Shown here: in pieces, positions 54,502 through 56,253 of the stretch
Numbering within the stretch: position 1 is the first letter of the stretch
How the letters are laid out: each line of letters starts with the position of its first letter
Assembly: GCA_030648435.1 (NCBI GenBank)
Contig: JAUSHE010000024.1
Location: forward strand, 1-63,698
DNA length: 63,698 bases
Origin: Candidatus Daviesbacteria bacterium
GTDB taxonomy: Bacteria; Patescibacteriota; Microgenomatia; Daviesbacterales; UBA10151
Reading direction: 5' to 3'
Made by a program: the position numbers and the translations under genes
The notes under the pieces: model-generated
The model's database searches: none
Told to the model about the DNA's origin: nothing
Seen by the model: only the letters and a program-made list of their open reading frames with translations

Positions 54502-56253
54502 ATGAATATTCGTAACTTTTCAATAATCGCGCATATAGATCACGGGAAATCTACCTTAGCTGACAGGCTGTTAGAGATTACCGGAACTATAGCAAAAGAA
54601 AAAATGCAGCCTCAGCTTTTGGATTCTCTGGCGCTGGAGCGGGAGCGGGGTATTACGATTAAACTCGCCCCTGTCAGATTGAATTACATTTTACATTCTA
54701 CATTGTACATTCTTAATTTAATTGATACTCCCGGCCATGTGGATTTTTCTTATGAAGTGTCCCGGGCGCTTGCTGCAGTTGAGGGCGCAATTCTTTTGGT
54801 AGATGCCACCCAGGGGATTCAGGCCCAAACTTTGGCCCATGGCTTGGCTGCCATGGAGCAGAATTTAACTTTGATTCCGGTTATTAACAAAATTGATCTG
54901 CCGAATGCTGATATCGAATCAACAAAAAAACAACTGGTGGATACTTTTGGGTTTACAGGAGATGAAATATTGCTTGTATCAGGTAAAACCGGCCAGGGAG
55001 TAGATAAGCTGTTGGAAGAAATTATTAAGAAAGTGCCGCCACCTAAACAGGAAATAGAGAAGCCGTTAAAAGCTTTGATCTTTGATTCTTTTTTTGATTC
55101 TTTTAAGGGAGTGGTTGCCCAAGTGCGGATTGTTGAAGGGCAAACCCCGCCTGATCAGAGCCAACTTATCTTTTTGGGTACAAAAGCCCAGGGGCATGTT
55201 TTGGAGACGGGCTATTTTGCCCCGCAATTGACTCTGAATAAGGGTCTAAAAAGCGGAGAAATAGGTTACATTGCAACAGGGATAAAAGAACCTGATTTAG
55301 TGCGTGTGGGTGATACCATTACCACTGATTTTTCTACTACCCAGCTACCTGGATACAAGGAAGTGAAACCAATGGTGTTTGTGGGGCTTTTCCCGATAGA
55401 TGCTGATGAGTATTTTGAGCTAAAAGAAGCTCTTGCCAAATTTAGATTAACCGATCCGGCCTTTTCTTATGTTCCCGAGCAGTCAGAGGCTTTGGGAGCG
55501 GGTTTTAGGTGCGGATTTTTAGGTTTACTGCATGCGGAAGTAGTGCAGGAGCGGTTATCAGGGGAATTCAATGTTGATCTTTTAGCAACTGCTCCGTCAG
55601 TTGAATATTTGGTAGATAATAAACCGCTTTCCAGTCCCTCATCACTCGGCACTTTTCACTCTATCAAGGAACCATGGGTGAGTTTGCGGATTTTTGTGCC
55701 CCAAACTTATATTGGTCCGGTTATGGAATTAGTCCAGGATAAAAGGGGTAAGTTTTTGGATATGCAGCATTTTGGGGCCCAAGTTGAGATGAGTTATGAA
55801 ATGCCCTTATCTGAAATGGTAACTAATTTTTATGATAAATTAAAATCCGTTTCATCAGGTTTTGCTTCCCTTGATTGGGAGCTATTAGATTTTCGGGAAA
55901 CAGAAGCAGTCAGGGTAGATATTTTAGTAGCCGGAGAAAAAGTGGATGCGCTGTCAACTATTATTTACAAGCCGAAGGCAGAAAGTTTTGGCAGAAGCAT
56001 GGTAGAAAAATTAAAAGAGGTTTTACCACGGCAAAATTTTGTAATTGCCATTCAGGCGGCAATTGGGGGCACTATTATTGCCAGGGAAACAGTATCTGCT
56101 TACAGAAAAGATGTGACAGCCAAACTTTACGGCGGAGACAGGACCCGGAAAGATAAACTGCTGGAAAAGCAGAAAAAAGGTAAGAAGAAAATGAAAATGG
56201 TAGGCAGGGTCGAAATCCCCCAGGAAGCATTTTTGAGTATTTTGAAATCTTAG
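54502..56253 (+). CDS. lepA: translation elongation factor 4 (LepA)
   Basis: NFSIIAHIDHGKSTL, DTPGHVDF, NKIDL, C-terminal GGDRTRKDKLLEKQKKGKKKMK. Confidence 0.96.
   Translation: MNIRNFSIIAHIDHGKSTLADRLLEITGTIAKEKMQPQLLDSLALERERGITIKLAPVRLNYILHSTLYILNLIDTPGHVDFSYEVSRALAAVEGAILLVDATQGIQAQTLAHGLAAMEQNLTLIPVINKIDLPNADIESTKKQLVDTFGFTGDEILLVSGKTGQGVDKLLEEIIKKVPPPKQEIEKPLKALIFDSFFDSFKGVVAQVRIVEGQTPPDQSQLIFLGTKAQGHVLETGYFAPQLTLNKGLKSGEIGYIATGIKEPDLVRVGDTITTDFSTTQLPGYKEVKPMVFVGLFPIDADEYFELKEALAKFRLTDPAFSYVPEQSEALGAGFRCGFLGLLHAEVVQERLSGEFNVDLLATAPSVEYLVDNKPLSSPSSLGTFHSIKEPWVSLRIFVPQTYIGPVMELVQDKRGKFLDMQHFGAQVEMSYEMPLSEMVTNFYDKLKSVSSGFASLDWELLDFRETEAVRVDILVAGEKVDALSTIIYKPKAESFGRSMVEKLKEVLPRQNFVIAIQAAIGGTIIARETVSAYRKDVTAKLYGGDRTRKDKLLEKQKKGKKKMKMVGRVEIPQEAFLSILKS
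54684..54718. repeat. heptamer patch inside the lepA G-domain
   Basis: TTACATT TTACATT CTACATT GTACATT CTTAATT, translated NYILHSTLYILNL. Confidence 0.9.

Follow-up and report, generated by a model that had tools for sequence, protein, structure and literature searches.

The window analysed in the present study is a stretch of 63,698 nucleotides from a groundwater genome of Candidatus Daviesbacteria (G000; 784 kb (0.78 Mb) in 48 contigs, 38% GC, 92.6% complete). Its subject is a short array of heptamers inside the gene lepA, together with the related arrays that bound four-helix-bundle (4HB) genes of the family PF05635. Labels beginning with G denote genomes, those with L denote individual loci in other genomes or records, and those with C denote contigs of G000. 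The lepA (EF4) gene was called as an intact open reading frame (ORF) of 583 aa at 54502 to 56253 on the forward strand, and its product matched solved EF4/LepA structures with E values from 1e-180 to 1e-189. Within this ORF, a solo array of five TACATTN-type units occupies positions 54684 to 54718 (35 nt, forward strand) and encodes residues N61 to L73 of LepA. The five heptamers are TTACATT, TTACATT, CTACATT, GTACATT, and CTTAATT, exactly as listed in a first-pass annotation of this DNA. In this tract, 23 of the 28 lag-7 comparisons matched, and Tandem Repeats Finder (TRF) reported period 7, 4.0 copies, and 90% matches; the strict-array scan described below also detected it. No pair of longer repeats was detected around lepA among the TRF rows of the window, and no tRNA genes were found in the window.

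The peptide encoded by the tract is NYILHSTLYILNL. The order in the protein is ITIK-LAPVRL-patch-IDTPGHVDF, with six residues between ITIK and the patch. An AlphaFold model of LepA, built with 29 sequences, had a mean pLDDT of 82 and a value of approximately 93 over residues 61–70. In this model, strand β2 comprised residues 56–64, H65 and S66 formed a two-residue turn, and strand β3 comprised residues 67–75 and ran into DTPGH. According to the model, the patch makes up most of the G-domain β-hairpin (the outer part of β2, the turn, and β3), which goes beyond a mere loop.

We compared this hairpin with its counterparts in other Candidatus Daviesbacteria and Microgenomates genomes and in outgroups. 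The segment from GITI to IDTPGH contained 20 aa here versus 21 aa in E. coli-type and T. thermophilus EF4 (a one-residue gap), and 16 or 21 residues in other bacteria. Relatives of the same genus with a non-periodic hairpin (KYNLDGVEYVLNL and KYNHQGVEYTLNL) also had 20 aa in this segment, as did several outgroups. The equal length of the array-free hairpins of the same genus indicated that the tract replaces sequence and adds none. The first-pass annotation had proposed that the patch overwrites a loop without lengthening it; the replacement was borne out, and the loop turned out, in the model, to be most of two β-strands joined by a two-residue turn.

Most LepA hairpins of Daviesbacteria were 20 aa long and showed a lag-7 identity of 50–74%, compared with approximately 30% in the outgroups. 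The units found at this site across the relatives were TACATT, TATACCC, ACTCTNA, ACTTTNA, and ACGATA, and all orthologues were in frame at the array site. In lineages of the candidate phyla radiation (CPR) other than Daviesbacteria, whole arrays or inverted array pairs were inserted in the same LepA hairpin (L017/L070/L089, L130, L132, and L136). The arrays are not peculiar to this genome: they run through Candidatus Daviesbacteria as well as further CPR lineages, and cyanobacteria offer a parallel. An assembly artefact, which the first-pass annotation had named as a possible refutation, was ruled out by in-frame arrays at the same lepA site in many independent metagenome-assembled genomes from different studies.

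Synonymous codons were then resampled with the peptide held constant. For the array-type orthologues, resampling gave 13–16 of 32 lag-7 matches, compared with 20–26 observed (P from 0.005 to <5e-5 in 7/7 orthologues); three ordinary hairpins were not significant. The codon choice was more periodic than the peptide demands, so the period is a property of the DNA (or RNA) and not of the protein. The reverse proposal, that selection on the protein for a symmetric hairpin (YxLN...YxLN) combined with codon bias produced the pattern, can point to the Y-x-L motif at 7-residue spacing, which is present even in non-array hairpins. However, it is contradicted by the resampling, and a 7-residue repeat corresponds to a 21-nt rather than a 7-nt period; we regard its probability as close to nil. 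The chance is very slight, too, that lepA and the other host genes are contingency (phase-variation) loci in which perfect heptamers would act as frameshift switches. A unit of 7 nt is not a multiple of three, and several arrays in the genome are perfect, both of which would suit a switch. Yet the lepA array is imperfect, the hosts have housekeeping roles, no orthologue is out of frame, and non-coding arrays have the same length.

A marked excess of period 7 was observed in the whole genome. Exact lag-7 runs of at least 10 numbered 52, versus 2.3 in shuffled sequences, and those of at least 14 numbered 20, versus none. We defined a strict array as a tract with at least 18 of 21 lag-7 matches and used dinucleotide, synonymous, and codon-order shuffles as controls. 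Strict period-7 arrays numbered 48 genome-wide, compared with 0 in the shuffles, and TRF reported 141 rows of period 7. Inside ORFs, there were 42 lag-7 runs of at least 10, versus 3.4 (maximum 6) after synonymous shuffling and 1.1 after codon-order shuffling. The statement of the first-pass annotation that a 7-nt period cannot arise from codon structure is in line with these codon-shuffled controls, which that annotation had named as a potential refuter and which did not yield the excess, and with the peptide resampling; an artefact of codon structure or composition was ruled out by the three kinds of shuffle. No excess over the shuffles was found at periods 4–6 and 8–12, either in the whole genome or in ORFs. 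The congener G018 showed an excess of its own, also at period 7 only.

The arrays of G000 comprised dozens of canonical units, and several arrays were perfect, with 4–5 units. Their lengths had a mode of 30–33 nt (approximately 4.5 units) and a narrow peak within 30–35 nt, which was the same for coding and non-coding arrays. Deviations inside the arrays clustered in one or two heptamer phases and involved any base, which corresponds to a core-plus-wobble layout: a core of 5–6 nt plus 1–2 wobble positions, repeated approximately five times over approximately 32–35 nt. Of the 48 strict arrays, 35 (73%) were contained entirely in ORFs of 80 codons or more. Because ORFs cover 94% of the genome but hold 73% of the arrays, the arrays are approximately four-fold enriched outside ORFs and depleted in coding sequence.

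These distributions bear on ordinary microsatellite dynamics, in which the arrays would originate by replication slippage and then be made uniform at their own site, through slippage or unequal exchange, while selection holds the protein length. Perfect arrays of 4–5 units, concerted changes within the lepA array (e.g., Thr to Ile on both strands), and the fact that the lepA families are one-step neighbours are all as expected from such dynamics. In contrast, the enrichment at period 7 and at none of the periods 5, 6, 8, and 9, and a length spectrum that peaks at 30–35 nt rather than decaying, are not. Slippage by one unit would break the frame in housekeeping genes, the same discrete families occur at unlinked loci and beside 4HB genes, and related genomes of similar GC that lack 4HB genes have no arrays. 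We therefore consider ordinary microsatellite dynamics unlikely.

The history of the lepA site was followed on a LepA tree of 45 leaves from which the hairpin columns were left out. The hairpin class changed at least 23 times on this tree, and the state changed between array and non-periodic at least 4 times. Periodicity at the site was kept across species with saturated synonymous sites while the unit family switched repeatedly. The alignment of sister genomes suggested in the first-pass annotation thus revealed arrays at the lepA site in many lineages, with a unit family that changes again and again. G000 and G009 belong to different clades (support 100/99 and 100/98), yet their patches are identical at 34 of 35 positions; outside the patch, the rest of lepA is 75% identical and the flanks of 150 nt on either side are 77% identical. 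In the adjacent murJ, G000 was nearest to G013 and G008 (90–91%), both of which have a non-periodic lepA hairpin. The neighbouring genes disagreed in their affinities (window 52864 to 57228 compared with L002 to L023), as MurJ placed G000 with G013 and G008, and the LepA tree placed it with G010 and G021. This discord points to recombination between species of Daviesbacteria or to unequal rates.

Family switching was also observed elsewhere in the genome. We compared the orthologous sites of array-bearing proteins of G000 with 770 kb of the congener G018. At C25:17188, ACTATGA in G000 was matched by AGGTTAC in G018 at the same place and length. The FemAB-like gene (41829) carried GTCTACC in G000 versus AGGTTAC/AGGCAAC in G018, the pcrA-like gene (45824) AAACTAC versus AATTTCC/AGCTTCC, C25:1993 CAGTTCA versus CAACTAC, and C31:6419 AGGCAAC versus AAGTGCA. 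Of the remaining sites in G018, some had the same family, some were array-free, and some had a small GC-rich palindrome inside the array; the orthologue of the LdcA-like gene was non-periodic at the position corresponding to 56366. Large jumps of unit family were found at 4/7 orthologous positions between the two genomes.

lepA tends to carry a unit family that is well represented in its own genome. Arrays of TACATT are restricted to the genus and were commonest in G009 (32) and G000 (23), the two genomes with TACATT in lepA. Arrays of TATACCC were commonest in G018 (43), G024 (38), G012 (31), and G006 (23), all of which carry TATACCC-type lepA patches. Moreover, identical non-uniform arrays were found at unlinked loci, namely 41 nt shared by C10 and C37 and 33 nt shared by C11 and C30. 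The lepA patch shares its unit family with intergenic arrays and with arrays flanking a 4HB gene, as had been proposed, and the exact 20-mer TACATTCTACATTGTACATT of the patch recurs only in the array adjoining the 4HB gene on C10. As a side observation, the 41-nt identity joins the end of that 4HB cassette (C10:1345-1395) to a gene-less inverted array pair (C37:4189-4240), and the C37 locus resembles a non-autonomous derivative of the C10 cassette, similar to a miniature inverted-repeat transposable element.

The 4HB gene of the window lies at 18256 to 18673 on the reverse strand and was assigned to PF05635 (113.8 bits) and TIGR02436 (E 2e-31). Arrays of GTATATC type lie on its two sides (18204 to 18234 and 18626 to 18654), and an array of TACGATA type in inverted orientation, with approximately nine degenerate units, occupies 18697 to 18762; all three were among the TRF rows. 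G000 contains 10 PF05635 genes, and 38/41 relatives contain at least one. All nine of the G000 4HB genes listed (9/9) had a periodic repeat tract on at least one side, each copy with a unit family of its own. The flanks were mostly clear inverted heptamer arrays; that of C1:2332 was weak, and those on C13 and C12 consisted of CTAATT/TTAGAAA repeats of 6–7 nt. Across approximately 20 genomes, 56/74 4HB genes had an array no more than 130 nt away. Between the upstream unit and the reverse-complemented downstream unit, the distance was 1.46, compared with 3.0 in direct comparison, which indicated an inverted orientation. Small PF05635 cassettes, of the type known from Avd and the intervening sequence (IVS) of 23S rRNA, have these same heptamer arrays as their inverted terminal repeats. 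These cassettes sit between protein-coding genes, outside 23S rRNA. Inverted pairs that enclose no gene and single arrays were present as well, in the spacers between genes and in protein segments that can accommodate them (hairpins, loops, signal peptides, and termini); the lepA patch is one such solo array without a gene.

The distance between 4HB proteins correlated with the distance between their flanking units (Mantel test, 0/2000 permutations). Solo arrays were within one mismatch of the cassette units of their own genome in 53% of cases, compared with 28% (maximum 44%) for composition-shuffled units. The copy number of 4HB genes correlated with the number of arrays per 100 kb (rho 0.79, P 0.004, 11 genomes). 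No array was found in 260 kb of G030, which has 0 4HB copies, or in 200 kb of G034, which has one weak copy. Arrays and 4HB genes thus co-occur both physically and across genomes.

A rival explanation is selection for binding sites without copying. The arrays would then be periodic DNA or mRNA sites recognised by a protein oligomer, of which the 4HB protein is a possible example, and would be formed by point mutation, retained by purifying selection, and shifted between families by co-evolution. In line with this proposal, the periodicity outlasts saturated divergence, the codon choice exceeds the needs of the peptide, the units have a core plus wobble positions, the array length is fixed at approximately five units, mixed intermediates occur at lepA, and each 4HB paralogue is flanked by a specific unit family. 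However, at least four separate constructions of a 35-nt array in one hairpin by point mutation are improbable, and identical non-uniform arrays of 33–41 nt at unlinked loci and the large family jumps at 4/7 orthologous positions do not agree with it. In addition, the host genes have no evident function in common, nor do the positions of the arrays (loops, signal peptides, and spacers). We consider this explanation doubtful, but it deserves to be kept in mind, above all for lepA by itself.

The association extends to cyanobacteria. We searched 72,556 plasmid records with a CPR 4HB protein by tblastn and obtained 32 matching records, of which 31 were cyanobacterial, mostly from Nostoc, Calothrix, and Trichormus. 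Among the six cyanobacterial plasmid 4HB genes examined, five had abutting heptamer arrays: AGTCAGG in 4–5 copies in four of them and CTCTGCC in five copies in one. Four of the six cassettes are probably orthologous to each other. In the 50 kb of pNPUN02 that were scanned, arrays were found at period 7 only; there were four, one of them 3 nt from a 4HB gene. The Nostoc punctiforme plasmid pNPUN02 (L276) also carries an inverted pair, CAATTCG x5 at 19955 to 19995 and GCGAATT x4 at 20105 to 20139, approximately 110 nt apart, with the same architecture as the inverted pairs of CPR bacteria. In our literature search, no paper was found that ties PF05635 to heptamer repeats or that deals with heptamer repeats in CPR bacteria.

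The closest known counterparts are the short tandemly repeated repetitive (STRR) heptanucleotides of heterocystous cyanobacteria, reportedly described by Mazel and colleagues in 1990. STRR heptamers were first described in Nostocales-type cyanobacteria (background in PMC4679880). The arrays of G000 share with them the tandem unit of 7 nt, the small number of units, the many dispersed copies, and the presence of several families per genome, and the origin and function of STRR repeats are unexplained. In contrast, STRR repeats are predominantly intergenic and, as first defined, belong to heterocystous cyanobacteria, whereas G000 is a CPR bacterium of 0.8 Mb in which most copies lie within housekeeping ORFs, at positions conserved from species to species. 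Here, orthologous sites switch unit family, and the physical link to PF05635 is documented. The TAACTGA direct repeats of Beggiatoaceae, cyanobacteria, and Bacteroidetes, for which mobility is suspected (MacGregor 2015, PMC4679880), are similar in that some copies lie inside ORFs. They differ in having one dominant unit, a mostly intergenic location just upstream of start codons, and intragenic copies at protein ends, whereas the Daviesbacteria arrays comprise dozens of unit families and have copies interior to conserved domains.

In lepA hairpins of some relatives, a further class of sequence was observed. Nostoc reportedly contains, according to Elhai and colleagues (Genome Research, 2008), small dispersed repeats (SDR), hairpin elements of approximately 21–30 nt that land in heptamer arrays and genes with the frame kept. 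The hairpins of L008, L014, L016, and L018 (G006, G021, G007, and G016, respectively) contained three GC-rich palindromic inserts of 21–30 nt within the array, which contain GGCCCTTCGGGCC (a), CCTCCGAAGGAGG (b), and GGCAACGAAGTTGCC (c). Their distribution over these four loci was mosaic (a, a+c, b+c, and b, in that order) and disagreed with the LepA tree. The GC-rich palindromic inserts and their mosaic pattern resemble SDR-type mini-elements landing in heptamer arrays; in contrast, the lepA patch of the window has no insert, and the element sequences are unlike the cyanobacterial ones. Short GC-rich GAA/TTCG hairpins amounted to a handful in G000 and G018, none of them beside arrays, so the SDR-like inserts of relatives are scarce in these two genomes.

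Two further systems with a linked protein were also compared. The PF05635 protein resembles Avd, the nucleic-acid-binding four-helix bundle that is an accessory protein of diversity-generating retroelements (DGR; PMC10053308). The 23S rRNA IVS (S23p/PF05635) and Avd have in common with the present cassettes the protein family and a compact layout with inverted repeats at the two ends; here, however, the cassettes lie between protein-coding genes, the inverted repeats are heptamer arrays, and no reverse transcriptase was found. Repetitive extragenic palindromic (REP) sequences and their paired form REPIN, which are mobilised by REP-associated tyrosine transposases (RAYT; PMC3116915), are short dispersed repeats that often form inverted pairs and accompany a gene with copies of the repeat on its flanks. 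The heptamer arrays share the dispersal, the inverted pairs, and the self-flanked gene. In contrast, REP units are palindromes rather than tandem heptamers, and the linked gene here encodes a 4HB protein without a known catalytic motif.

Writing of the arrays by DGR-like retro-homing or by REP/RAYT-type transposition would fit the resemblance of PF05635 to Avd and the presence of three Y1-transposase-like genes in G000, but we consider it highly improbable. PF00078 gave 0 matches in the 92.6% complete G000, and the deviations within arrays fell at wobble phases with any base rather than being adenine-specific, so a DGR variable region was rejected. RAYT/REP mobilisation of the heptamers was rejected as well, as the Y1-transposase-like genes are bounded by GC-rich palindromes of their own and not by heptamers. 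These three genes (RAYT/IS200-like; C12:22061-22793, C25:26305-26989, and C2:12409-13084), each flanked by its own REP-like palindrome (e.g., GTGGGAACG and CCACCTGGAAGGTGG), represent a second, separate repeat system.

On balance, we lean towards the view that the lepA patch is a solo STRR-like array that copying at the DNA level maintains or rewrites, probably with the participation of 4HB proteins. Length-neutral copying from other arrays is the most likely route. The first-pass suggestion that something seeds or copies heptamer tracts is plausible, given the identical arrays of 33–41 nt at unlinked loci and the agreement of the lepA family with the genomic repertoire; we infer the copying step, its mechanism, and the role of the 4HB protein as its agent. 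In this view, short patches would be copied with other arrays of the same genome as templates, and this length-neutral conversion from array to array would both preserve arrays and form them anew. Copying may nucleate at targets with a prior weak TA-N5 periodicity, such as that presumed for the ancestral hairpin Y-x-L-x4-Y-x-L. Selection would let through only products that are in frame, stop-free, and structurally tolerated. Among possible trans-acting partners, the 4HB proteins are the best candidates. A binding mode of one protomer per heptamer is speculative and would suit the approximately five units if the 4HB proteins are pentamers.

A broader proposal is that PF05635 genes and heptamer arrays together constitute a previously unrecognised genetic element common to CPR bacteria and cyanobacteria. 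Its protein would bind the arrays with one protomer per heptamer and promote length-neutral, array-templated rewriting of tracts of 30–35 nt anywhere, conserved domains included. We put this proposal forward only tentatively, as a possibility with less than even prospects.

Several observations weigh against copying with 4HB participation. At lepA, the unit families are only one or two core bases apart (ACCCT, ACTCT, ACTTT, and ACATT), and mixed arrays occur at L076, L083, and L019; taken alone, this site could be explained by stepwise change in place with partial homogenisation. G008 is rich in TACATT arrays, yet its lepA hairpin is ordinary and non-periodic. No near-identical LepA variants were found, the 90% cluster consisting of this protein alone, and no conversion event was directly seen. 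Regarding the partner, joint inheritance of linked DNA may be enough to explain why 4HB proteins correlate with their flanking units, and the correlation between copy number and arrays comprises only 11 genomes and is uncorrected for phylogeny. G035 has four 4HB copies and no array in a sample of 80 kb. The pentamer idea comes from the analogy with Avd, which we take to be pentameric. Finally, the search for a reverse transcriptase (PF00078) in the 92.6% complete G000 gave no match, and no copying enzyme was identified.

Heptamer tandem repeats (STRR and TAACTGA) have been catalogued for decades without a known origin or partner. In the present study, arrays were found to be capable of occupying the structured core of conserved housekeeping proteins, to persist or arise anew through DNA-level processes at orthologous sites even as the sequence family changes, and to be tied physically and across genomes to PF05635 in two very distant phyla. 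An old descriptive puzzle thereby becomes a hypothesis of binding and conversion that is testable in cultivable cyanobacteria. If the rewriting element proves real, it would explain the origin of STRR repeats, a question open since 1990, and would reveal a new route by which a DNA-level drive can overwrite protein sequence. The annotation and phylogenetics of CPR proteins call for caution, as segments of conserved genes are shaped by forces beyond protein selection.

Further arrays were located in the window. In tsaD, a solo array of CTGACAG/CTGATAG type (13583 to 13612, reverse strand; TRF and profile match) was accompanied by a short TCGTTAT-type tract (14395 to 14421, reverse strand; TRF). 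The pcrA-like helicase gene contained a solo array with 4–5 sense copies of AAACTAC (45824 to 45860, reverse strand; TRF, strict scan, and profile match). The FemAB-like gene contained a perfect solo array with four sense copies of GTCTACC (41829 to 41863, reverse strand; TRF and strict scan) and a second, weaker periodic tract with a TRF period of 14 (41504 to 41533, reverse strand). On the forward strand, a solo array of ACTATGA type lay in the holA-like gene (49868 to 49899; TRF and profile match) and one of TGATTTA type in the LdcA-like gene (56366 to 56396; TRF and strict scan). The identities of TsaD and PcrA were supported, and those of the FemAB-, HolA-, and LdcA-like proteins weakly so. 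Of the additional patches named in the first-pass annotation, those at 45824, 41833, 41504, 13583, 14395, and 49868 were recovered; in the LdcA-like gene, the array at 56366 was recovered too and the tract at 56555 was weak, with 2.4 copies by TRF.

Three minor observations concern other repeats. A module of two arrays, GTCTACC x3-4 followed by CGGAAGT x4, was present in two different ORFs (C32:1617-1683 and C35:3153-3219), and its first half stands alone in the FemAB-like gene of the window (41829 to 41863). The inverted pairs AATTTAC...TACATTT at C22:6535-6660 and C40:7440-7540 are apparently translated as an N-terminal, signal-peptide-like segment of two proteins (e.g., MTAIFKCTIYNLQCTIKPLLILFAFIFTFYILHFTFLTPAFA), and the G018 orthologue of this segment carries a different array family. 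The top TRF score in the window belonged to a perfect 24-nt tandem repeat of 2.3 copies at 20432 to 20487 (GCAATAAAGCAAGTTTGTTGCTTC), which is unrelated to the heptamers.

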